A DNA stretch of 45,562 nt. Source: Nemertoderma westbladi. Its lineage: Eukaryota > Animalia > Xenacoelomorpha. Where the stretch lies: positions 1-45,562 of the forward strand of contig JAUCBJ010005501.1 in the NCBI GenBank assembly GCA_032718475.1. Direction: 5' to 3'. The notes under the pieces were generated by a model. That model was not told the DNA's origin. It ran no database searches and saw nothing but the letters and a program-made list of their open reading frames with translations. The position numbers and the translations under genes are program-made. Below are positions 1,747 through 42,245 of the stretch, in pieces; the stretch's first letter is position 1; every line of letters begins with the position of its first letter.

Positions 1747-3290
1747 TCAGTTAATTTTGTGGTTTCTGACATATAAAAAATAACATGTCTTATCAATTTG
1801 TTTTATATGGGAATTTGAATTGAAACGCCAATTTAGATGTAAAATGTTTACAATGTGCCAACTATAAATATGCAAATTTCGTGAATAAAAGACTACATAA
1901 CGCCAGTATCTACGTAAAATGGTTTTAATTCGACAAAAATTGTCGATAGCCAATATGATCTCTTCAGCTCTTCATATATTGTATAATTATATATAATGTA
2001 TATTATATTATTATATAATAGGAGCTCTTCATAGCATTTCTACTAAGTATATTCTGGCACACGAACATCAAAAAACTTGTCTCAATTTGTAATATTTACG
2101 AACATGTAATGAAACACCAATTTTGTTATAAAATATTCGGCATGCGCCAGATGCTAAATATGTAAACAATTTGCCAATGTGGTTATTAAAAGTCTACATA
2201 TCGCCAGGGTATATGTAAAATGGCTTCAGTACGCCCAGAGTAATGGTATGGTTAAGTTTTGCGATTTTTGGTGTTATGGTTTCATGTTATAGTTCTGTTT
2301 CAAGATTTTATCGTCCCTTTCATTTTCAAACAACCTAAATGACAAAAATGTATTTTCCTGTAAAACGGCATTTTCGATTCTAATTTTGTTTGAAAGTAAT
2401 ATTCCCGGATTTTGGTCTTATTTACTTTTGAATCCATTAAATTTAACGATTTTAAACGAAAAAAGTTATGGTATTGGAATTATGTAACATATTAGGTAGG
2501 AAACAATGTATAGGGATATAGGTTGTTTCAAAAAAAATATTTCATTTTTCACAATGATCACTCAAAAATTATTAAAACCCTTAAGACGAATTCGATTATT
2601 AAGTTTTAAAAATATAAAACAAATCTCCCTCTATCATAATAAACAACAATTCTAGCTCCTGATTCGTTGTTTCCAATTTTAAATCAACGTTTCGTAAATT
2701 TCTTTATCATGCGGTCTATGCAAAACTGGCATATAGGTGGTTTTGAAAAGTTAAATATCTCAGTTATACGTGGGAGGGGGCATGGCCTTCTAAGTGTGTT
2801 AATCGGATTCAGAATACATTTTGATTATTGATAGTAACAATGTGTTGGCAAGCTGTATTTTTCGAGGTGTTTGTTATTTTACTTTTATAAGAAGGGATCT
2901 AGGGGTCTTAACCTCGAATGATAAGTTTATTTTACCGAAAATAACTTATCTTTTATTGGCGCAATTGTAGGACTAATCCCATCACATGCGTACTTTTTAA
3001 CCGGGTAGTGTACAAATTTAGGAATCGCGTAATTTTTCTTGAAATTAATATCTCATATCTCTCCAAACCATGTGATGGGATTAGTCCTACAATTGCGCCA
3101 ATAAAAGATAAGTTATTTTCGGTAAAATAAACTTATCATTCGAGGTTAAGACCCTAGATCCCTTCTTATAAAAGTAAAATAACAAACACCTCGAAAAATA
3201 CAGCTTGCCAACACATTGTTACTATCAATAATCAAAAATCAGGGGCTAAAAAATGGCAGCTGTCTTTGAAATTAATACTCCATATCTCAA

Positions 3291-3353
3291 GAACATGTGG
3301 CCTAGTGGTTGTAGTCTCGGCTTCCGCCTCGAGGTCCCAGGTTCGAATCCGAC
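3291..3353 (+). promoter_or_regulatory. tRNA-like internal RNA Pol III promoter
   Basis: A box TGGCCTAGTGG (3298-3308) and B box GGTTCGAATCC (3340-3350), both consensus-quality with tRNA-like spacing; no full cloverleaf. Confidence 0.8.
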
Positions 3354-3396
3354 ACCACGCTGATGAGACCCAGTAAGGTCGAAACGCGTACGTGGT
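3354..3396 (+). ncRNA. Minimal type I hammerhead ribozyme
   Basis: Stem I ACCACG (3354-59) / CGTGGT (3391-96); core CTGATGA (3360-66); stem II GACC-cagtaa-GGTC; GAAA (3381-84); palindromic minimal stem III ACGCGT; predicted cleavage after GUA (A3390). Confidence 0.88.
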
Positions 3397-6392
3397 TTGG
3401 AGAGATATGAGATATTAATTTCAAGAAAAATTACGCGATTCCTAAATTTGTACACTACCCGGTTAAAAAGTACGCATGTGATGGGATTAGTCCTACAATT
3501 GCGCCAATAAAAGATAAGTTATTTTCGGTAAAATAAACTTATCATTCGAGGTTAAGACCCCTAGATCCCTTCTTATAAAAGTAAAAGAATACATTTTAAC
3601 ATAGAGAAACGCAGAAATCACCATTTCGGCAAAAATGGCATATAGGTGGTTTCAAAATGAAAGGGACGATATGGTTATGATGATTCGGGTAAGTCTTTAG
3701 ATCTCTTAAGGTCACAGTGCAGGTGATACCGGTATGGTTTTGCCTATGATTTTGAAGGTCCATGTATGTTATGGTTCAGTTGATGTAAATAATGTGGCCT
3801 TCGAAACAAATTACAGTACACTGGACTGGACATTCCTAAATATTACCCGCAGAATCATTCTGCTTATTATTAATTTGTTTTATATGGGAATTTGAATTGA
3901 AACGCCACTTTAGTTGTAAAATGTTTACAGTGTGCCAACAATAAATAGGTCAACAATTTGCCAATTTCGTGAATAAACTCGTCTCCATCACTAGACTGGT
4001 TGCGCTCGTACTGTTTCGCATCACAAATGAAGGCATTCTCAAGAGGGAGCCCAAGAGATGACAATAAGAGTGAAGCCTCAAAGGGGAAAGGAACGGCCTA
4101 CGAAACTAATATAGTTGTGGGCAGTAACTATCCACTGGGAAGCAGCACCACAAACTTGCGCCAATCACGCTTCTGTATTTAATTTTTGTATATTGGCTGT
4201 TTGGTATAACTGGTACATGCGATGCAGCCTGCAGGATAAAAAGTCTAAATTAGATCCTAAAAAACCTGACTTTGGTGAACCTAGCAAACTTCTTAGGCTT
4301 CTTATGCGAACATAAATCGTAAATTGCTGATAATTTACTGTAGGTCCCGTGTTTTTACTTAGGCCTATATACCACAATAAATGCCATTAATAGTCACCCC
4401 ATGAGTTTATAGCTTTAATTAATATTATGCTCATTTTAATTGTTTATATTAAAAATGGTTTATTTTTTATTGCTAGCCAGGGTGCCGTCAAAAAGAATTA
4501 TAAATCGTTCCCCAGGAACATATGCTTTTTTCGTTGCATGAAATACAAGAGATGATAGGATGATGACAAACGCCACTTATGATGAATTTTTTGGTCTTAA
4601 GTAGCATTATCGCCATTGTGGCGTTAAGATGACGTGCCTACAAAACGCCATTATATCCCGCAGAACGCCCTCATCTTATATAAACAGGTCGCAAAAGCGC
4701 CAATATACATATTTCGACATGGCGTATTTGTTAAGCGCAACATCTATATATATATATTATGCCTGTTATATATAATTCCTGGAAATAGGTGGCAAAGTCG
4801 AAACGAACCTCAGGTGCGAATGGTGATAAATTTGAATCTGATGCACTTATGAATCAAGAGTTGATCATATTGATCCATTACCTCATACCGAAATTATTCC
4901 CACAAAAACTTCCACATCAGTCTTGTTTCCCACCGCATTATATGTTCTGTAGATGTTCTAGTAACTGTTTAAATTGCCAAGATTGGAATTGGTGTAATAA
5001 TCTCTTACTTAATGAGAGAATGTCAGAGTTGTGAAGTGCAACTACAGGTGTTTTGATTAATCATGCAGACCGAACAATGGAACCGAAAACTAGCGCTACT
5101 CCAAATGTGACGGTTGGCTAAAGGGGGTAACAGACGTTTCGGTCTAACACGTTTTGGCCTAGGACGTTTCGGCCCAATGAATGAATTACAAGATTTGCTT
5201 GTCGGACGTTTTGGCCCAAAGATGCACTTTACTCCCTTAAATAATAATATTAAATAATAATAATAAGTTATTCAATATATTTGTTTTTGTTTTGTAGTTG
5301 TTACGTTCGTTACAAGAGGAGTTGTCAGTAGGAACTGCTCCGACACCTGTTTGAAAGTCGTCAAGATCGAAGTTCTACATTACATTTATAAATAATAACT
5401 AATGTAATATTATTATTATTATTTATTAATATAAATTTACACCGAACTGTAACTTAGAACAAAGATAACATATTATGCTGATAAATTAACTTTAGTATTA
5501 TGATGATGGGGTTTCCCCCATGACCCAACCGATCAACTGATGTTGCAATTACTACGCGTCGCCGCGTTAGGGAATACTGATGGCTGAAAGCCGGGTAAAA
5601 TAAGAGTTTGTTGTTAATTATCGTTGTTAATAATTATGAAGGAGTATGTATTGACACTCGCTTAAATGTTAGGTGATTATTGAAATTAATTTAGTATAAG
5701 TTAACAATAATGTATTCCATGAAATGAGATTCTCAGTGATTCATGCATTCGTCTTTCGAGCTTACCGTTTTAGTTGCATCATTCAACTTAGCCTGTGTTT
5801 TGTATTGGTTACAATCTTCCAGAAACTTAGGTGTGGGTGGGTAGTGGGTGGGTGGTCTCGGTGTGTGGGGTAGGGTAGCGGGTTTGTGTATGTTGATTTT
5901 ATGTTCATTTTCGTCGGAGATCGGGAGTGGGAGAGGTGATGAGTTGGGGCAGTTCCGCGGCAATAATAATACTGCCCCTCAATAAAGAGACCCCCTTTAC
6001 TGCTATCAGGGACGCGTTGTTCGACAGAGCCCCGTCAGCAAAAACAGTCAGTACCGCTAGTCGGTGGGGTTGACTTGTTGACGAGAGGCTATTTACAGGC
6101 GCATCGGTCAACCATTACTGACCAAGGCTCAGATAGTTTACCGTTAAATTAATTACAGCCCAATCAGTATATAATATTAGTTACGGATGATGGTGAAAAC
6201 TGTGCGACATCCTACATAAATGATATAGCCAACAGAATTGGTAGGAACGTGATATCAATATGTTTAAAAACAGGGAAAAACACAACAACGTAGGCTTAAC
6301 ACGTATAATTGGCCATCCAAACAATACACATCCCAATAATCGCTTGGTGTCCTTCATTAGTCGGCATATACCAGCCTCACAATTCCAATCTC

Positions 6393-8326
6393 CCCTTGGT
6401 GTTCCACATTGTTGCTCATTTCTCCCCATTGTTGCTCATTGCTCCGCATTGTTGCTCGTTGTTGCTCATCAGTGCTCATTATTGCTCGGTGTTCCACAGT
6501 GTTGCTCATTGCTCCCCATTGTTCCTCATTGTTGCTCATTTCTCCCCATTGTTTCTCGTTGTTGCTCATTATTGCTCGTTGTTGCTCGGTGTTCCACATT
6601 GTTGGTCATTGTTGCTCATTGCTACCCATTGTTCCTCATTGTTGCTCATTTCTCCCAATTGTTACTCGTTGTTGCTCATTATTGCTCGTTGTTGCTCGGT
6701 GTTCCACATTGTTAGTCATTGTTGCTCATTGCTCCCATTGTTACTCGGTGTTTCACATTGTTTCTCATTGCTCCCCATTGTTACTCGTTGTTGCTCATTT
6801 CTCCCCATCGTTACTCATTGTTGCTCATTTCTCCCCATTGTTTCTCGTTGTTGCTCATTATTGCTCGTTGTTGCTCGGTGTTCCACATTGTTAGTCATTG
6901 TTGCTCATTGCTCCCATTGTTACTCGGTGTTTCACATTGTTGGTCATTGTTGGTCATTGCTACCCATTGTTCCTCATTGTTGCTCATTTCTCCCCATTGT
7001 TACTCGTTGTTGCTCATTGCTCCCCATTGTTCCACATTGTTGGTCATTGTTGCTCATTGCTACCCATTGTTCCTCATTGTTGCTCATTTCTCCCCATTGT
7101 TACTCGTTGTTGCTCATTATTGCTCGTTGTTCCCCATTGTTGCTCGTTGTTCCTCATTGTTACTCGTTGTTGCTCATTGCTCCCCATTGTTACTCGTTGT
7201 TGCTCATTATTGCTCGTTGTTGCTCGGTGTTCCACATTGTTAGTCATTGTTGCTCATTGCTCCCATTGTTACTCGGTGTTTCACATTGTTTCTAATTTCT
7301 CCCCATTGTTACTGGTTGTTGCTCATTTCTCCCAATCGTTACTCGTTGTTGCTCATTTCTCCCCATTATTACTCGTTGTTGCTCATTGCTCCCCATTGTT
7401 CCTCATTGCTCCCCTTTGTTACTCGTTGTTGCTCATTATTGCTCGTTGTTGCTCGGTGTTCCCCATTGTTGCTCATTGCTCCGCATTGTTGCTCATCATT
7501 GCTCGTTGTTGCCCGTTGGTCATTGTTGCTCATTGCTCCACATTGTTCCTCATTGCTCCCCATTGTTACTCGTTGTTGCTCAATTCTCCCCATTTTACTC
7601 GTTGTTGCTCATTGCTCCCCATTGTTACTCGTTGTTGCTCATTGCTCCCCATTGTTACTCGTTGTAGCTCATTTCTCCCCATTGTTCCTCATTGTTGCTC
7701 ATTGCTCCCCATTGTTACTCGTTGTTGCTCATTATTGCTCGTTGTTGCTCGCTGTTCCCCATTGTTGCTCGTTTCTCCTCATTGTTGCTCATTGCTCCCC
7801 ATTGTTACTCGTTGTGGCTAATTATTGCTCGTTGTTCCCCATTGTTGCTCGTTGTTCCTCATTGTTGCTCATTGCTCCCCATTGTTACTCGTTGTTGCTC
7901 ATTATTGATCGTTCTTGCTCGGTGTTCCCCATTGTTGCTCGTTGTTCCCCATTGTTGCTCGTTGTTGCTCATTGCTCCCCATTGTTACTCGTTGTTGCTC
8001 ATTATTGCTCGTTCTTGCTCGGTGTTCCCCATTGTTGCTCGTTGTTCCCCATTGTTGCTCGTTGTTCCTCATTATTACTCGTTGTTGCTCATTGCTCCCC
8101 ATTGTTCCTCATTGTTGCTCATTGCTCCCCATTGTTACTCGTTGTTGCTCATTATTGCTCGTTCTTGCTCGGTGTTCCCCATTGTTGCTCGTTGTTCCCC
8201 ATTGTTGCTCGTTGTTCCTCATTGTTGATCATTGCTCCTCATTGTTACTCGTTGTTGCTCATTATTGCTCGTTCTTGCTCGGTGTTCCCCATTGTTGCTC
8301 GTTGTTGCTCATTGCTCCCCATTGTC
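6393..8326. repeat. Complex minisatellite of 9-12-bp subunits (CATTGTTGCT / CATTGCTCCC / CGTTGTTGCT variants)
   Basis: Continuous reiteration of related subunits; produces overlapping low-complexity ORFs in all three + frames. Confidence 0.95.
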
Positions 8327-11692: not shown

Positions 11693-11750
11693 AGTGGTTA
11701 GCATAACTGAACGTTTTTCGGGAGACGCGGGTTCGATCCCCGCTGGTGGC
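11693..11750 (+). pseudogene. tRNA/SINE-head fragment inside the Helitron (also ~16953-17010 and ~20029-20086)
   Basis: AGTGGTTAGC...GCGGG-TTCGATC-CCCGC (perfect T-arm/B box); absent from other copies, e.g. GTTCTATACATTCCGTATC at ~25521. Confidence 0.75.
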
Positions 11751-31942: not shown

Positions 31943-34900
31943 TTAAATAATTATTTTATATTTTGTGCGTGGGAAGGGCGTCTCGCCCTCATTCCCACCC
32001 CCCTCAGTCCAAAACTTTGGACGACTAAAAACTCTCACGTGCCCCTTCTTCCGGTAGGCACTCTCCTGCTGCCCTCCTATACGTCCTCTAGCTCTTCGCC
32101 ACACTCTCTTCGGTGCCACCTTTACTGGCCTCCCCCTTCGTATGTGCGCTGGCATTAGGGCCCTCGACGACCCCCGCTCGTCCCTCGGTATACGCGGTGT
32201 CTGCCCGTGCAATGCCCCCTCGCACTGTGTCCGTCCTGTGTGTGTATGCAACACGCCTCCTTCTACTTTCCCGACTCCCTTATGTTTTCTAATGGGCTTC
32301 TCTGCCCCTGGTTTAGTCCTTTCATATCCTCTCTCTTTCCAACACTCTCCGGATCTGTGTCCTTTTACCACACATCGATGACATAGTCCGTTTGCGTCTG
32401 TGTAGGCTACACGATCTCGTTTGGGCAACGCTTGCCAATACTTGCAACTCCTGGTCTTGTGGGTTCCGTCCCGATGTAATTGACATTGGAATCTTGGATT
32501 ATAGCGTTTCCTGTATAGTCCTTCACGTATCGCGCTTAGGTTTATATGTACCGATTTAATGTTTTGGTTGTCTAGACTCGGCCTACTGGGTATATTGGGA
32601 TTGTGTTTATTTATGGTGTTATTTTCTTTCTGTCCCTGCCACGGTGTGGCCCTGCTCCCAGCTAACTGTGGACTGGTAGTCCCCTGTATGGCCGCGTGTG
32701 GTGGTGACTGTCCGCACGACCTGTTCTCGTCCAGGGAGTTCGATGTTCTCGCTCCTATCGGGGTACATTGTCGATATTGTAATGGGGGAATGTCACCCTG
32801 TCCCCCCCCAGCCGGTATGTTTGGTACTGGGGTTGATGTTAATACATTGGGGCCCATACGTCTATCTCCAATAACTCCCCCCTCCCCTGGATATATGTTA
32901 TGTCCCTGTGTATTATAGTCATGCTGCTGTACCGATATAGGCCTACCTACCTCTCGCCTATCTACCGGTATGTACTCCGCGACTTCCGGGTTTAATCCCG
33001 TCGTTCGCGCTACCCCATCGCCTACTCTATCTCTCCCAGCATGGCCTATAATAGTATGTGCAGTAAGGCCTACAGTATGTCCTGCAGTCTGCATGTGCCC
33101 TTCCGAACCGAAGTTTATTCTTCGCGAATCTCGAATCTCCCCGCGACTACTGCACTCTCGATCGGCAGCTATATCCCGTCGGGAAGCTTCCCTTCGATCC
33201 CCTATCCTGCTCTCGTCTTCGTATTGGTACGTCTTGTACCCCTCTCTTGGCGTGCGGTGCGTTTCTCCGGGGCGACGGCAATCTCCCGAAGTTCGACCCC
33301 ACTGGCCCCCTGTCTCCATCTCTACTATCGACGGTTCGTTATCCGTCCTCGCGCTGCTATCGTTCGTGGCGACACTTCTTCTACTATCTTCTCTTCTTCT
33401 CTTTTCTGTGTAGTATTCCGGCTCGTGAGATCTCTCGTCGACCTCCCGGTTAAACTCCACTCTTCCTCCTCCCTCTTCTGATCGGGCTCGACGCTTCGTC
33501 TGCCCTCTCGCGACGTCAACCTGCCTCTCTCTACTCGATCGCACGCCGCTGGGGATACTCGCAATCCCCCTATTACTCTCCGTCGCCGGGTGTTGCGGTT
33601 TACCTGATTCGGCCCGCGCATTATCCGCTGACGGCTGTGGGACACTCTCTGCCCCCCCTCTCTCTCTACTAATCTCTCGCGGTGGGGTGCCCGCAGCCCC
33701 CCCCCCCACCCGCCACTTCTAACTTCACTATTTCTTACTACACTTCTATACCCCTCTTGTGGGGCATTCTCTGCCCCCCCTCTCTCGCCACTAATCTTAT
33801 GTGGTGGGGCGCCCGTAGCCCCCCCCCACCCGCCACATCTAACTTCACTATCTCTTACTTCGTCTCTACACCCCTCTCTAGTCGACGCACTGTCTCTACT
33901 ACGGCTGGGTCTATTCACCCCCGCCTCTCTCTCTACTACTGCGTGGCCCACCAGGCCTACTTCGGGTTGGCTCAACCCCGCTACCTCCTGCCTACCAACT
34001 ACGTGGCCTACCAGGCCGCCGTCGGGTTGGCTCAACCCTGCCACTTCCTGCCTACTAACTACGTGGCCTACCAGGCCACCGTCTGCCGGGTCATGTACGT
34101 CCGACACGCTCATATTAATAGCACCATTCCCAATATTATTTGTTAAATCAATTAAATTATTAGAATTTGAAACGGAATTATTATTTAAATTATTTAAATT
34201 ACTTAGATCACTACTATTCTCTAAACTTAAATTATTATTCGAATTATTTTGCGGGTTTGAATTGAAATTATTATTTAGAATATTTGTATTTAAATTTAAA
34301 TTACTACTACCCGGTAAAATATTATTTCCTGTAATAAAGGGATTAGGGTTATCTACTACGGTACTATTAATATTAACTGTCTCTAACGTACTACTACTAC
34401 CCCCCCCGCCCGTACGGCTACACCAGTTCTGGCTCTCTCGCCCGGTGCCTGTAAGTGGGGGCTCACTCTCTGATATCTCCAACCGCGCCAGTTCTAGTCG
34501 GCGCCGTTTAAGTTTGGCCCGATATTGCGCAAGCAGCGCCAGTCGGTCAAGCAAAAGATATCGCTCACGCTTTTGCTTTAACTCTCTCTCTCCGCACTCT
34601 CGGGACTCTCTCGCAAGCATCCCAGGCTGCCTCGCCGGCTCGCTCTCTATTCTCCCGGTTATTATCGCGATATGCTCCCGCTCTCTACGCTCCTCGGCCC
34701 TCTCTCTATCCTCCCTTACCAACTCTAATAATGCGGTTTGCTCTCTCAATTGCCCCTCTAACTGTTTCCGCTCTGCCGCCGCCTTTTCTAATTTATACGC
34801 CACGCGTTCACTCTCTCGCACCCTTCTTTCTTTTGCGGAGGATGTAGCAGACTTATCGGTTGCGACGGACTCCCGTCGCCCCTCCGTCCTACTAACTTTC

Positions 34901-35661
34901 CCCCGCTTCCCGGAACTTCCTCCGACCGACGAGACCGAATCCTCGGAGTTAACCTCGGATTCGCCCTCCCCAGGTCTCTTCCAACCCACTAACCTAAATT
35001 CCCTGGCATCGACTAAGTATGGCCCTATGTACACTACACCAGGCCCCATACCCCTACGTTCCCATAGTTTAAACAGTTCGAAGGCAACCCCTCTCGCTCG
35101 CTCCCTGGCCAGTTCTCCCTGCCCAGAACGCACTAGGTGATCAAAGTATCTGTTCGACTCACCTAGTCGTCTCCTCAGTCTCACCTCGTCTATCTTCGCC
35201 CCTCCTTTGGCCTCTCTCAGTTGCTCCCTGGTCGCGAGGTAGGCCCGTCGAAGTCGATCAGAAACCCCGACGTCCTCGTCGCCGACCTCTCCTCTGTCTC
35301 TCCGGGTCCGACGTCGTACCGACGGCCCCACCGTCGCCGTTCCGGTGGACCGTTTGTCGTCCTCGGCCTGTGGCGGACCGGCGACATCGGTTCGTCGACC
35401 CTCGCTCCGCGTCGACTCGTCTTTCTCTTCTCCTCCCGACTCGTCTCCTCTACTCGACTCGCTCTCTCCTGGTAGACGACCCCCCACACCTTGGTTCGCC
35501 GTGTTGCTCGTTATCGACGTGGCGTCAACGTGCGTCGACGTGGTCGGCGTAGCATCGACCGGCGTCGTGGGTTCGCATCGTCTCGCCGTGGCCTCGCGGA
35601 TCGTTAGATCGTCGTCCGGGGTCCGCGGCGGTGTCGTTCCTTTCTCTCCTATTCGGCTCAT
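31943..35661 (-). CDS. Gag-derived ~1240-aa protein, split by one frameshift in a homopolymer run (33697-33707)
   Basis: First true ATG at 35661 (MSRIGEK; the track's start at 35868 is GTG). Charged coiled-coil-like region, Asn-rich tract, peptide repeats, and C-terminal CQLH...HKTRSC...LCHRCVVKGHRSGEC knuckles (CX2CX4HX4C) of BEL/Pao type. Confidence 0.7.
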
Positions 35662-35808
35662 CTTTGTCTTTGGTGTCAGTCTATCACTGTCAGGGCAGCT
35701 GGGCGGATCTAGTTCTGTCACTGTGACGGGATCTACGGATCCCGGTTTATCCGTTTGGGTTTTCTGCCCACGCGTCCCCGCCGTGTGTGAAAGGTAAAAG
35801 AGTTCTGA

Positions 35809-36271
35809 TGTTGGGTAATATGTATAAAGGTATAATAGTCCGACAGTTGATATAATGTAGTATGACACAATAGGTAATATATAATGGCGGTAGCGGACGG
35901 TGACAGAAGTCCCCGTTCCACCCTACTGATCTGACTGAGTAAACTGAATAACTGACCGGTATGATTACTGGTAACTGGTTATATTGCACGGTGGCCTTAT
36001 TGCTACTCAATCGATGCCTTTCCCCCCTCTGATTGGTTGATACCCCTGTTGGCACCCTTTGCCCCCCTCTGAAGTGCTTCCCTTCGCCCTTGCTGTTCTC
36101 TCTCTTGTCAGGGGAGTAACCCCTGACCCTTATTGTGTGTGTCTCCTTTGGGGCCTATTGTCCCCGTTTACTGGGCTGACACGAGGTTGATTGGTAATCA
36201 ACCTCGTGCTCCCAATATTGCTTTATGGCTCACTCTATGGGTTTGTGTTAGCGGAATTGGATAAGCTAACA
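35809..36271 (-). repeat. 5' LTR (inner boundary inferred)
   Basis: Starts TGTTAG; putative end CCAACA at 35809 gives TGTT/AACA termini. Only 35959-36271 is confirmed by the second copy; no PBS recognised. Confidence 0.55.
35950..36036 (-). promoter_or_regulatory. LTR Pol II core promoter
   Basis: Minus strand CCAATCAG (~36036-36029), TATAA starting at 35983, Inr-like TCAGTT with A at 35953, i.e. TATA at -30. Confidence 0.6.
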
Positions 36272-37031
36272 CTGAAAGTTAACATCTTCTACAACTTTGT
36301 TATTTACTAACGGTTTAGACTGAAACTTGGTAGGCATCTACTACAGCATAGGCTGTACCTTTCCGGAGTCACAGAGTTGTATACAGTCCCCCCATCTGCC
36401 ACTAGATGGCGACATATCTGATAGTGAACACCTCATCCCATTTGGTTCTTTTTAATCCTATTGAGCTGGAACTTGGCAGGAATCTACTACACTACAGCAT
36501 ATTCTGTATCTTTTTACGGAGTCCTAGAGTCGTCTACAGTTCTTCAGTCTACCGCTAGAGGGTGAAATGTTTGAATATGAACATCTACACCAATTTTGTT
36601 ATTTACAATCTGTTTAAGCTGAAACTTGAAAGGCAGGCATTTTACTTCACCATAAACCCCATCTTTACCAAACTGCAGCGCCGTCTGCATTTCACCAGTC
36701 CGCAGGTAGAGGGTGGATCTGAAAGTGATAATTTTCTGGAAATTTTGTTATTTACAATCTGCCTAAAGTTGAAACTTGACAGTTATCTCTTATGAGGGTG
36801 GTGTTTTATTTAATGATGGTGTCTGTTCCGTATGCAGTTCTCAAATCTCCCACACATATTCATATATCATCTGCACGTGCACTAGAAAGCTGTGGCCCGA
36901 AGGGCCACAGGCTTTCTAGTAATACATATAATAATGATTATCGTAAATCAATTTTGTTTTTTTTTAAATGTTCCAAATGCCAGTTTCATAAAAATCACGT
37001 TCTTTGATGGAAAATATACTATGTATACGAA

Positions 37032-37140
37032 GGCGGGGTAGCTCAGTTGGTTGAGCGCCGAGCCTATAATCTATTGGATGAAGGTTCGAGCCCCGCCAAG
37101 GTCCACTCAGCCTTTCACCCACTGATAAAATAGAAGCAGT
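37032..37140 (+). mobile_element. tRNA-derived SINE head
   Basis: GGCGGGG (37032-38) pairs with CCCCGCC (37091-97); A box TAGCTCAGTTGG; D-arm GCTC/GAGC; B box GGTTCGAGCC; followed by CCACTCAGCCTTTCACC...GATAAAAT. Confidence 0.8.
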
Positions 37141-37154
37141 TGAATAAAACTTGG

Positions 37155-38544
37155 GATAGGAGTAGCGACCACCCCTACAACCCTACCTTCGGGTAGCAAA
37201 TAGGAGTAGCGTCCACCCCTACAACCCTACCTTCGGGTAGCAAATAGGAGTAGCGTCCACCCCTACCTTCGGGTAGCAGATAGGAGTAGCGTCCACCCCT
37301 ACCTTCGGGTAGCAGATAGGAGTAGCGCCCACCCCTACCTTCGGGTAGCAGATAGGAGTAGCGCCCACCCCTACCTTCGGGTAGCAGATAGGAGTAGCGC
37401 CCACCCCTACCTTCGGGTAGCAGATAGAAGTAGCGCCCACCCCTACCTTCGGGTAGCAGATAGGAGTAGCGCCCACCCCTACCTTCGGGTAGCAGATAGA
37501 AGTAGTGCCCACCCCTACAACCCTACCTTCGGGTAGCAAATAGGAGTAGCGTCCACCCCTACCTTCGGGTAGCAGATAGGAGTAGCGTCCACCCCTACCT
37601 TCGGGTAGCAGATAGGAGTAGCGCCCACCCCTACCTTCGGGTAGCAGATAGGAGTAGCGCCCACCCCTACCTTCGGGTAGCAGATAGGAGTAGCGCCCAC
37701 CCCTACAACCCTACCTTCGGGTAGCAAATAGGAGTAGCGTCCACCCCTACCTTCGGGTAGCAGATAGGAGTAGCGTCCACCCCTACCTTCGGGTAGCAGA
37801 TAGGAGTAGCGCCCACCCCTACCTTCGGGTAGCAGATAGGAGTAGCGCCCACCCCTACCTTCGGGTAGCAGATAGGAGTAGCGCCCACCCCTACAACCCT
37901 ACCTTCGGGTAGCAAATAGGAGTAGCGTCCACCCCTACCTTCGGGTAGCAGATAGGAGTAGCGTCCACCCCTACCTTCGGGTAGCAGATAGGAGTAGCGC
38001 CCACCCCTACCTTCGGGTAGCAGATAGGAGTAGCGCCCACCCCTACCTTCGGGTAGCAGATAGGAGTAGCGCCCACCCCTACCTTCGGGTAGCAGATAGG
38101 AGTAGCGCCCACCCCTACCTTCGGGTAGTAGATAGGAGTAGCGTCCACCCCTACCTTCGGGTAGCAGATAGGAGTAGCGCCCACCCCTACCTTCGGGTAG
38201 CAGATAGGAGTAGCGCCCACCCCTACAACCCTACCTTCGGGTAGCAAATAGGAGTAGCGTCCACCCCTACCTTCGGGTAGCAGATAGGAGTAGCGTCCAC
38301 CCCTACCTTCGGGTAGCAGATAGGAGTAGCGCCCACCCCTACCTTCGGGTAGCAGATAGGAGTAGCGCCCACCCCTACCTTCGGGTAGCAGATAGGAGTA
38401 GCGTCCACCCCTACCTTCGGGTAGCAGATAGGAGTAGCGCCCACCCCTACCTTCGGGTAGCAGATAGGAGTAGCGCCCACCCCTACCTTCGGGTAGCAGA
38501 TAGGAGTAGCGCCCACCCCTACCTTCGGGTAGCAGATAGGAGTA
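37155..38544. repeat. 36-bp minisatellite, ~38 copies, with higher-order structure
   Basis: Unit CCCTACCTTCGGGTAGCAGATAGGAGTAGCG(C/T)CCAC. An 8-bp insert coupled to a CAAATAGG variant recurs at spacings of 296, 188, 188 and 332 bp. Confidence 0.97.
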
Positions 38545-38551
38545 CCCTATT

Positions 38552-39945
38552 TTGGTTACCCTATGTTGGTTACCCCAAATGGTATACCCGACGCAAAGAA
38601 AGTCAACAGGCCGGACGGGCGGACCGCACCCAACGGGAGAATCTGTACAGCATCCTTCGAACCCATTGGAAGCACAGGCAATGGGAATGGCAACACTTAT
38701 CGATGCACTCAAGACCAGAATCGAGCTACCACCAGTAGAGCCATTTAAATTCGACGGAAGCAGACCGGAAGAATACCTGCAATTCCGGCGCATGTACAGC
38801 AACGAGATATTAACTAAGAACCTGACGCAGGCAGAGTGCCTAAAATATTTACAGGTATACACATGAGGCCCAGCGTACGACATCGTGAGGCAGTATCAGG
38901 GCATCGAGGGTGGCTTCACGACTGCATGGCGGGCCCTAGACAGGGAGTACGGACACCCTGCCAAGATCATCCGGCAGACCTTAAGGGGTATAACTTCGGG
39001 TGGCCTACAGGATAACCCTGTTAACATAAAGACCTTTGCGACCAAGGTCGAAAAGGCGTTAAACATGCTGAAAACGCTAGATGCGCCATACAAACTCAAC
39101 GCATCTAATAATATCACCACGATAGCGCAGGCACTGCCAATCTGGCTGCGAAATAAATGGAGAAAGATCGCCTTCTCCACCCGGGAGAAGAAAGGTGCGG
39201 CACCGGGCCTAGAGGAAATGTCGAACTTCTTCAACTATGAAGCAGAGTTAATCATGGACCCAGTCTACAGCGATGATAGTCTGGGGAAGGCACCGAGGGC
39301 CGAATACAACAGGCCGAAACCAGTGCATAACGCGGCAAATGCGTTGCCAAAATTAAGACAATCCCTACCATACGCGGCGACACAGGGGACTGCAAGTCCA
39401 CAGATAGCTGGAAGTGGGGCCAGACTGTGGCATGAACAGGGACAAAATAACAACACGAACAAATATAATCCCAACATACCCAGTAGGTCAAACTCAAATA
39501 ACCAAAACATTAAACCGGAAGACGTAAACCTACGCGCAATACATGTAGGGTTATATAGGGAACGTTACAACCCAGAAAACAAATGTCAATTGCATAAAGA
39601 CAGAACCCATAAGACCATGGGCATTGGCAGGCATTACCCGAACAAGATCGAAAAGCCTATGCGGATAAGAATGGAATTTGTCACCGATGTGTGATAGGAG
39701 GACACAAGGTTGAAGAGTGTAAGGAGACACCAGTAAGATTCGGTCAAGGCAAAGGTCAAACAATGGCGACAAGCACCATAGGGGCGAAGAAAAGGGGAAC
39801 GGTACTACTCGGGATAGTGCCAGGGGAAGGCGGTCGATCAGTTACTACGCTGATGCTGGTCGACAGCGGAGCAGCCTTCACATTGGTGGAGAATTGGGTG
39901 GCCGAGGAGATAGGGCTAAAGACGAGGCCAAGTATTTTAATCAAT
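38552..39945 (+). pseudogene. BEL/Pao gag-protease relic
   Basis: IELPPVEPFKFDG..EEYLQF...KYLQVYT*GPA...AWRALDREYGHP...LPIWLRNKW (DUF1759-like Gag); in-frame TGA at 38864-66; frameshift at ~39620; GICHRCVIGGHKVEEC knuckle; aspartic protease MLVDSGA; truncated afterwards. Confidence 0.88.
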
Positions 39946-40417
39946 GGAAAGGACCTGAGTCATTTTTACAAAACTTGGCACAATAAAATTTTAACCAACT
40001 GAAACAAGTTGGTAGTTATCCTCACAATCCAGGTTGTTTTACTCCGCATTGCGTACTGGTACACTGTTTATCAAATACACTGTTCATAGCATAAGATACA
40101 AATGATAATGATTACATAGTCAATAAGATAGTACAGTAATAATTGCACAACTTCGGCAAGATTGCAGGTGTTTTGTCTCCGTCTTTCTGTGGATACTCAG
40201 AGAGCAGAATGACAATATCAAAACGCCATTAATGTAGATGTCTATATACTGTCGGTACTGATATGTATTCTATCTGAAAATCAGTACCAGTAACCACCAT
40301 TACACTAAAACCAGTATACTGCTATATATTAAAGCACGCAACTCAACATTGTATAGTAACCCGCCACCAGCTGTTCTGTATGAAAAGAGGATATAAGAAA
40401 ATGATTATATTGGTCTA

Positions 40418-41010: not shown

Positions 41011-42245
41011 ACTACTAGGAACGGCATGCTGCATTTCAGCTGCATTTTTAAGAATGCTGTGCCGGCTTGTCGACAAAATTGCGCCGCCACAACTCCCTAT
41101 CACCCATGACATTTGCTAGATCATCGGCATCTTCAAGGCCAGTGTCCTTTAAGATGCGCCTCAAGAAAGTCATGGGCTGTCCACCATGCTTATTCACTCC
41201 ATGAGGCTGCCAAAGTACAAGATTATGCACTGGCTGGTCCTCACGGCGAAAGCAATGTCCTGCAAAGCGGAGGCGATTTTGTTCTAGTGTCAAGCTTGGG
41301 GGAACCAATGAGACAACTCCAATGTTATATAGTGTCTGGTTGAAGATGTGAGCATTGTACTTGACACAATGAACCCGGCGTAGCATTCTTGTGAATGTGC
41401 CATCCAGAGATTTGGTGTCCTCAGCAGTTAGAGCCCAGCATGGACTCCCATAGAGGAGTACTGGAACTACCGCTGCTCTAAATAATCGGACCTTAAGTTT
41501 CCGATTAATTCTCGGTGACTTCCAAATCCTAGAAAGCCTATTGAAGGCGGCCCATGCCTTTCCCTTACGTATTCGAAGGTCCTCACCTGACTTCCGGATC
41601 CATGATCCCAGGTAACAGAAGTCGTCCACATGCCCAAGCATACCATCCTTTGAGCTTATGCTCATCCGATCAGAGACTTGCTGAGGGCTTTCAAAGTTAA
41701 CTGTCAAAATGTTGGTCTTTCTGGAGTTAATAAAAAGACCAACACTAGAAGCAGCATGTTCTAGTGAGCTGAGGAGCCGTTGGGCTCCCTCTAGTGATTC
41801 TGAGAGTACTCCTAAGTCATCAGCAAAGTCTAGATCAGGATCTAGATCAGGATTTCCTCGACTTCTGGAGCCAGTAGGTGGAGTAATTATAATTATCATC
41901 ATATCATCATATGATCATCATAATTATGATGATCTAAGGACATGCGTAGAACATAGTCAACCACAATTATGAACAAGAATGGTACAAGTGTGTCTCCCTG
42001 GAGGACGCCCCATAACACTTCAAATGGTTGTATCACCGTCAACAGTAGACACAAATGTTGCCGAACCATCGTATACTGATCTGATTGCTGCAATAATTTC
42101 GTCAGGAATCCCATATAATGAAAGTATGCTGAACATACGTGAGCGAGAGACTGAATCAAAGGCCTTGAAGAAGTCAACAAAGATAACAGCCAGATGCCTG
42201 TCTTTCTTTATTGATAACTCTTCAATTATCCTTCTAAGTGCCAAA
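41011..42245 (-). mobile_element. 5'-truncated RTE-clade LINE (reverse transcriptase pseudogene)
   Basis: FVDFFKAFDSVSR, GVLQGDTLVPFLF, LDFADDL, FCYLGS, VLLYGSPCW across three frames; (AGT)n tail; 12-bp TSD ATGATCATTACT at 40999-41010 and 42246-42257. Confidence 0.92.

Follow-up and report, generated by a model that had tools for sequence, protein, structure and literature searches.

Hammerhead ribozymes are carried by Sm-alpha and Sj-alpha, the SINE-like retroposons of Schistosoma (PMC6765202, PMC2770079, PMC2576457, PMC8490949, excerpts), and in Sm-alpha the cut is described as separating the promoter from the downstream unit, with the promoter left at the 3' end (PMC6765202, excerpt). Tandem hammerhead repeats were also reported as widespread retrozymes of animals (PMC7229834, PMC7761336, excerpts). 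A 2026 preprint proposed that retrozymes derive from Penelope-like elements (PLEs), based on their co-occurrence in Xenopus and on pLTR homology (bioRxiv 10.64898/2026.07.22.740005, excerpt). Here and below, a citation marked as an excerpt rests on passages of the source.

The window analysed here, i.e., the whole 45,562-nt stretch of Nemertoderma westbladi DNA, harbors a non-coding unit of ~410 nt, about a quarter of which consists of promoter-like boxes and a hammerhead. As in Sm-alpha, the tandem unit is present at high copy and places A and B boxes of tRNA type directly upstream of a type I hammerhead; it measures 406-411 nt here versus 335 bp in Sm-alpha. Unlike in Sm-alpha, stem I follows the B box after only 3 nt and is predicted to draw in the last bases of that box, helix III amounts to a 6-nt palindrome and the insertion has a Penelope-type shape; moreover, the relatives of Sm-alpha are tRNA-Gln-like, whereas the head found here was matched to no tRNA by ARAGORN or Rfam. 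By analogy of layout rather than by sequence homology, the element may work like Sm-alpha. An initial annotation of this DNA, made from the letters alone, had drawn the same comparison, which is apt given the common design of boxes followed by a hammerhead. The design is not new: a tandem unit with promoter and hammerhead is known from Sm-alpha, and the motif pair is no surprise once this design is known from blood flukes.

Judged from its sequence, the family bears the features of a non-LTR retrozyme, namely a unit within the 150-450 bp range, a G+C content below 50%, a type I hammerhead, no ORF, a target duplication of more than 4 bp and a predicted self-paired circle. It differs from metazoan non-LTR retrozymes by its promoter-like boxes, which these elements appear to be without according to PMC7761336 (excerpt), and by the single ribozyme at the locus. 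With PLEs it shares a partial tandem, an inverted truncated copy, a one-sided tail, an AT-rich target and a hammerhead within the repeat, and it departs from them by the lack of an RT/GIY-YIG ORF, by its canonical hammerhead, by a tail of 54-58 nt and by its tRNA-type head. Ordinary tRNA-derived SINEs similarly present A and B boxes, are non-coding and dispersed, and are flanked by a target duplication; unlike them, the copies described here are circularly permuted, extend upstream of the promoter and encode a ribozyme directly behind the B box, and in place of a SINE tail only four A are found at the end, common to the target duplication. On balance, the unit is probably a ~410-nt head-to-tail retrozyme copied into DNA by a Penelope-like reverse transcriptase. 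In the literature searched, neither the family nor any Pol III hammerhead SINE mobilised by a PLE was reported; repeat databases and most subscription papers lay outside this search, and the supplement of PMC7229834 (excerpt), which contains many invertebrate retrozyme sequences, could include the family.

The ribozyme and its tRNA-type head

The core structure of the type I hammerhead spans 3354-3396 on the forward strand and begins 3 nt after the B box; including an extended stem I, the motif occupies 3348-3401 (+). Stem I (3354-3359 with 3391-3396, 6 bp) encloses the CUGAUGA box (3360-3366, +), stem II (3367-3370 with 3377-3380, 4 bp, G-C closed, with a 6-nt loop), the GAAA box (3381-3384, +), the palindrome ACGCGT that is all that remains of helix III (3384-3389, +) and the GUA triplet (3388-3390, +), after whose A3390 the cut is predicted. 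Five further predicted pairs (3348-3352 with 3397-3401) extend stem I at the expense of the B-box end. The elements expected of a type I hammerhead are all found, i.e., CUGANGA and GAAA boxes, an NUH triplet and a three-way junction. A structural descriptor applied to both strands of the window retrieved one hammerhead, and none in 300 dinucleotide shuffles (0/300). The joint pattern of boxes and hammerhead was equally absent from the shuffles (0/300 dinucleotide shuffles); a chance motif was rejected.

Rfam gave no match at gathering score over the window. Its HH9 model aligned with 3200-3500 at 26.6 bits (E=1e-4), below the cut-off of 52, so that the Rfam check proposed in the initial annotation yielded a sub-threshold match and nothing beyond it. 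Stems I and II have predicted pair probabilities of 0.64-1.0 in three sequence contexts, and the 106-nt stretch of boxes and hammerhead (3291-3396) folds on its own no better than shuffles (z 0.18). When two copies are co-folded, they associate through the palindrome with their stems I swapped, at -31.7 kcal/mol compared to -11.7 for one copy (2 x -11.7), a result by which the dimer fold would be favoured over two monomers in silico. Position 1.7 is a U and loop 2 ends in an A, which we take to fit the contact made between the loops in natural type I hammerheads. The conserved reverse Hoogsteen pair itself is confirmed in PMC6155905 (excerpt), the numbering is not.

Canonical metazoan type I hammerheads are defined by a 6-bp helix I, a 4-bp helix II and a helix III of 1-2 bp with a palindromic loop, and the minimal hammerheads of PLEs by a helix II of 7-8 bp, a helix I of 4-5 bp, an extra base in front of stem II and hardly any helix III, if any (PMC4209133, excerpt). 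By these definitions, the predicted stems place the ribozyme among the canonical metazoan type I hammerheads. The label of a PLE minimal hammerhead was discarded, as helix II has 4 bp, helix I 6(+5) bp and the extra base is missing. Helix III resembles that of the axolotl HHR_Amex1, with one pair closed by a palindromic tetraloop; HHR_Amex1 cleaved to 6% as a monomer and far more as a dimer (PMC7229834, excerpt).

Upstream of the ribozyme, a degenerate tRNA-like head (3291-3350, +) contains an A box (3298-3308, +) and a B box (3340-3350, +), both matching the consensus. Their spacing is tRNA-like, with 43 nt from the first A-box T to the second B-box G. The initial annotation had reported consensus A and B boxes followed 3 nt later by a complete hammerhead, and both were recovered in place with every motif that it named; its suggestion that the ribozyme acts as a dimer agrees with the modelled energies (-31.7 versus 2 x -11.7 kcal/mol). 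Its assignment to the minimal, Penelope-like class was revised, because a 6-bp stem I and a 4-bp stem II form a canonical geometry. A/B pairs alone are a weaker signal, with 5 in the window against a mean of 0.38 per dinucleotide shuffle. ARAGORN predicted no tRNA in 3291-3350, Rfam at E-values up to 10 gave no tRNA match for the head, and the parent tRNA was not found by these searches. Both boxes are without variants at or above 5% in the four public runs that were aligned (X1, X3, X4 and X5, described below), unlike other positions of the head, at which window copy and family disagree. A further predicted pairing joins the first bases of the head (3291-3297) to the beginning of the B box (3338-3344); the family majority base at 3295 would give a full 7-bp helix, which the window copy breaks.

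The sole run of four T in the unit lies at 3522-3525 (+; again at 3116-3119), inside a predicted hairpin, and is a possible weak Pol III terminator. As it precedes both 3' ends of the family, Pol III would need to read through it. Elsewhere in the window, a tRNA-like piece with A and B boxes and without a hammerhead occurs in three units of a tandem array (11699-11745, 16959 and 20035). Another tRNA-like head with A/B boxes is found at 37034-37155, and directly behind it extends a tandem array of ~36 copies of a 36-bp unit (37155-38544).

The insertion and its surroundings

The locus carries one hammerhead only and no ORF of at least 120 aa. Its head-to-tail unit measures 406-411 nt, with a period of 406-407 nt in the window and a G+C content of 39%. 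Positions 3069-3178 recur at 3475-3585 with one 1-nt gap, by which 3069-3586 (+) corresponds to 1.27 head-to-tail units of 406-407 nt. This tandem arm includes 220 nt of unit upstream of the head and stops at the first family 3' end, without a tail. It is preceded by an inverted, 5'-truncated partial copy (2819-3073, - strand), the 3' end of which is equivalent to 3233-3237, i.e., the second, tailed end. Over 3393-3585 the inverted copy is identical (193/193), and its comparison with 3069-3236 gives 168 identities and one gap. Its inner 5' end is equivalent to 3390-3393, at most 3 nt from the predicted cut, and the junction of both arms presents 2-5 nt of microhomology. Both outward ends of the insertion are 3' ends of the unit, and the A/C-rich "tail" of 54-58 nt that separates the two family 3' ends (3180-3237, +), at which loose contig ends pile up, is present on the left only.

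An exact 12-bp repeat (2811-2822 and 3586-3597, both +) flanks the entire structure, indicating a target-site duplication around one insertion of ~763 nt (2823-3585). The left duplication closes with four T, which share their positions with the four A that terminate the inverted copy at its 3' end, and the empty target site reads TTTT/A. Overlapping segments of the insertion share variants and differ by one 1-nt gap, which points to one template. Differences between the window copy and the family majority fall at 3233, 3249-3250, 3263, 3295, 3326 and after 3578. An assembly artefact was considered for the inversion and rejected, as the target duplication and the positions of the ends fit the family. 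The locus is probably a daughter copy, itself unable to release a monomer.

The window as a whole is repeat-rich DNA of animal type, with ~34-55% G+C by block. The retrozyme insertion is hosted by a MITE-like element with 36-bp imperfect terminal inverted repeats (TIRs; 2309-3671), which itself interrupts a repeat whose uninterrupted copy lies at ~1413-1889. A strand-skewed minisatellite of 1.9 kb (6407-8325), made of 10/20/30-bp units, generates spurious long ORFs in several frames. Further downstream, a higher-order tandem array of composite 2-3-kb units with an internal 146-bp satellite covers ~8680-29600 and 36882-36919; nine palindromic ends of 38 bp in it are identical to each other and close in CTAG, and directly behind most of them come a TC start and a CTGT microsatellite. 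Such CTAG-closing palindromic ends with TC starts are, we presume, those of non-autonomous Helitron-like elements. BEL/Pao-like fragments of gag (DUF1759) and aspartyl protease, below the Pfam cut-off, are encoded at 38867-40002 (+) and 32356-32712, with an inverted paralogous stretch of 74-77%. The long ORFs 31943-33718 and 33325-35922 (-) had no match in Pfam, and no longer relatives of the gag-like ORF were found. A non-LTR reverse transcriptase fragment (41051-41914, -), with RVT_1 and DUF6451 and presumably RTE-like, has 249 relatives with a best identity of ~50%; ctenophore and lancelet were the only organism names among the 120 of 249 listed, and atlas clusters give a weak pointer to molluscs or chordates.

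The family in public contigs and the fold of its unit

Public runs were used to describe the family: 12 were listed, 7 contained part of the stretch (5 studies), and four were aligned to 3200-3640, X7, of small share, being left out. No RNA data set containing the stretch was among those listed, which is no evidence on expression. The aligned material of X1, X3, X4 and X5 consists of contigs only, and summed depth was not used as a copy number; X4, which stands under another organism label and whose RNA nature is a guess, served for unit length only. In total, 2972 (X1), 1115 (X3) and 67 (X5) contigs were aligned, of which 323, 284 and 30, respectively, continue into other sequence, suggesting at least hundreds of loci. 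In X1, 1354/2972 contigs are at least 99% alike, and the family is young and abundant. Positions 3354-3396 show no variant at or above 5% in X1 or X3, in a family that is young and nearly uniform as a whole. One X5 contig, with a depth of 401, represents a copy with changes at core positions and is a decayed family member.

These contigs bear on what the initial annotation had claimed of the family. The abundant SINE- or retrozyme-like family that it foresaw is borne out by thousands of contigs, hundreds of which run into other sequence, and the family majority equals the window copy through both boxes and the hammerhead. Its element of 106 nt did not hold: the actual boundaries are 2811-2822 and 3586-3597, the unit is ~410 nt long and circularly permuted, and copies of the family include sequence on the 5' side of the predicted Pol III start.

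Cover drops sharply after 3578, and a head-to-tail joint from 3578 to 3200 is found in X1 (2 contigs) and X4. The single aligned contig of X4, 441 nt long, is a closed loop with a period of 411 nt, a form that tandem DNA and circular RNA would both produce. In X4 it appears as one unbranched 411-nt loop of family majority sequence, at a depth of 13.8, and may stem from carry-over, a mixed sample or abundant RNA alike. Though head-to-tail joints are present, no contig of the four aligned runs spans two ribozymes. In X1, summed depth amounts to 4-7e5 over the spacer that precedes the predicted start (3260-3289), and to 5-8e5, of the same order, elsewhere; being as deep as the body of the unit, this spacer implies that typical copies do not start at the promoter.

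Among the 18 of 418 entries listed, loose ends accumulate behind 3578 (33 in X1 and 34 in X3) and behind 3232/3238 (17+5 in X1, 20+5 in X3), where an even spread would give ~4 per 11 positions. The family has two preferred 3' ends, which match the two ends of the insertion in the window; both pile-ups, at 3578 and at 3232, are partly inflated since the window copy departs from the family there. Pieces starting at 3391 account for 2 of the 26 listed, probably one locus seen in two runs, and 3391 does not figure among the loose ends in the 18 of 418 entries listed. Loose ends also occur before 3426 in 6 contigs of X1 and 1 of X5, and long pieces start there in three runs; the A-run at 3426 is a possible preferred 5' junction.

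Scans of viral, metagenome and prokaryote collections gave no relatives. A loose pattern of B box and core hit 47 viral loci, none with a hammerhead recognised by the descriptor (0/47); an exact 31-base pattern had 0 matches in metagenome and genome contigs, and the B box with a canonical core had 0 in metagenome and viral contigs. These blanks weigh little, because the collections searched contain little animal DNA.

Folded as a circle, the unit reaches a predicted -97.1 kcal/mol, compared to -78.0 for shuffles (sd 5.1, z -3.8, 0/100 as low), and the ribozyme stems are predicted to be free to form in this fold. A predicted helix of ~22 bp encloses the promoter head and the ribozyme; its 5' arm (3265-3288, +) lies upstream of the predicted Pol III start and its 3' arm is at 3402-3425 (+). 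As this helix needs sequence upstream of the predicted start, it would exist in circles or multimers only. The minus strand folds at -95.4, near the -97.1 of the plus strand, so that the energy reflects inverted repeats and is by itself no proof of selection at the RNA level.

Proposed mobilisation and rival explanations

Each step that we propose for the family has a precedent in PMC7229834, PMC6765202 or bioRxiv 10.64898/2026.07.22.740005 (excerpts). Tandem source copies would be transcribed from their internal boxes, likely by Pol III, with a start near 3287-3291 and read-through of the T4 at 3522. Paired hammerheads would then cut the RNA to unit length through the palindrome, helix III being too weak for a single ribozyme, so that cutting would need two. 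Since a cut monomer would have its promoter 3'-terminal, the promoter together with its upstream spacer, as carried by most copies, would be passed on by circles or uncut multimers only. The unit RNAs would likely be joined into circles by a host ligase, as described for the retrozymes of axolotl and mussel (PMC7229834, excerpt). A Penelope-like reverse transcriptase/endonuclease would nick both strands of AT-rich DNA and use each nicked strand as a primer, at two fixed internal sites with a distance of ~55 nt, so that one outward end would bear a tail and the other none. At this locus, one cDNA would measure 518 nt, i.e., more than one unit, and would run through an intact cut site; the other, of ~250 nt, would have stopped at the cut site, as expected for cleaved RNA.

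Insertions of PLEs are described as partial tandems with an adjacent inverted 5'-truncated copy and a tail of 30-40 bp at one end (PMC8557442, excerpt). The locus shows the partial tandem with the adjacent inverted 5'-truncated copy expected of a PLE-mobilised sequence, and a one-sided tail and two end pile-ups are seen, the tail being 54-58 nt long and the pile-ups partly inflated. In vitro, the anole PLE protein primed from both strands and at two internal sites that bracket the tail, and used AT-rich targets (PMC11167929). The shape of the insertion suggests circular or multi-unit RNA as its likely template and an enzyme of Penelope type as the likely copying enzyme. Several observations speak against such a model: a stop at the cut site was seen once, for which the chance is ~7/411 within +/-3 nt; the tail of 54-58 nt exceeds the published 30-40 bp; the anole PLE mainly used uncut RNA as its substrate, with no reads ending at the cut site (PMC11167929), and 8/9 Xenopus dimers failed to cleave in vitro (bioRxiv 10.64898/2026.07.22.740005, excerpt). 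No autonomous partner was found in the window, nor did the 8 ORFs scanned, of 33 long ones, include a PLE ORF, and no source was found for the length of target duplications in PLEs.

In the main rival reading, the inversion would result from twin priming on a multi-unit RNA by a LINE of L1 or RTE type, in which the nick would fall at TTTT/A, the A-rich 3' end would prime the first cDNA and an internal A-rich site the second. TTTT/A is the L1 endonuclease motif and comes with a duplication of 12 bp, A/T complementarity extends over 4 nt at the left end and is partial at the right end, and the window contains the presumed RTE-like reverse transcriptase fragment. An inversion together with a target duplication is, besides, a hallmark of twin priming (PMC2837659, excerpt). 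Neither a poly(A) nor a simple-repeat tail is present, however, the right end is a family-wide pile-up in two studies rather than chosen by the target, and copies extend upstream of the predicted start, unlike those of ordinary SINEs; mobilisation by a LINE is in our view unlikely. Another idea has the unit spreading at the DNA level, as a satellite, MITE or Helitron cargo with the hammerhead as an idle passenger. The insertion does lie inside the TIR-bounded element (2309-3671), near arrays of rolling-circle appearance, and the X5 contig of depth 401 carries changes in its core. Yet it is the unit, rather than the TIR element, that the 12-bp duplication flanks, the two preferred 3' ends connect the unit with other sequence in hundreds of contigs, and the predicted cut site is where the inverted arm ends, which makes spread by DNA alone very improbable.

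A further reading accepts a genuine retrozyme and questions its promoter: the A and B boxes would be vestiges of a captured tRNA piece kept as RNA structure, and the RNA would arise by read-through from neighbouring promoters, as proposed for other animal retrozymes. The head, indeed, is no longer recognised as a tRNA and folds back on the B box, the B-box end pairs in stem I, the T4 lies 230 nt downstream, and metazoan retrozymes seem promoterless according to PMC7761336 (excerpt). It is rather improbable all the same, as both boxes match the consensus at tRNA spacing without a variant at or above 5% in four runs, and as Sm-alpha, with the same layout, is reported to be transcribed by Pol III. 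As for a stand-alone promoter-ribozyme SINE of 106 nt, the unit of the initial annotation, its motifs are compact and richer in G+C than their flanks; no target duplication surrounds 3291-3396 and contig depth continues on both sides, and we give this reading almost no credence.

Returning to a retrozyme copied by a Penelope-like enzyme, a bolder version can be put forward tentatively, and as a possibility rather than an expectation: a SINE with a tRNA-type promoter outside schistosomes, mobilised by a Penelope-like element instead of a LINE via ribozyme-cut, circularised RNA, with both intermediates recorded at one locus, as an arm copied from a circle across the rejoined cut site and an arm run off a cut 5' end. 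If true, this would provide genomic evidence for the use of a hammerhead in vivo during Penelope-driven transposition, and it would name the mobiliser of elements of the Sm-alpha type. Two questions are open in the literature, namely what transcribes animal retrozymes, for which no promoters are apparent (PMC7761336, excerpt), and what inserts them, PLEs being the proposed candidates. A young and abundant family with A and B boxes and a Penelope-shaped insertion offers a direct test bed for both.
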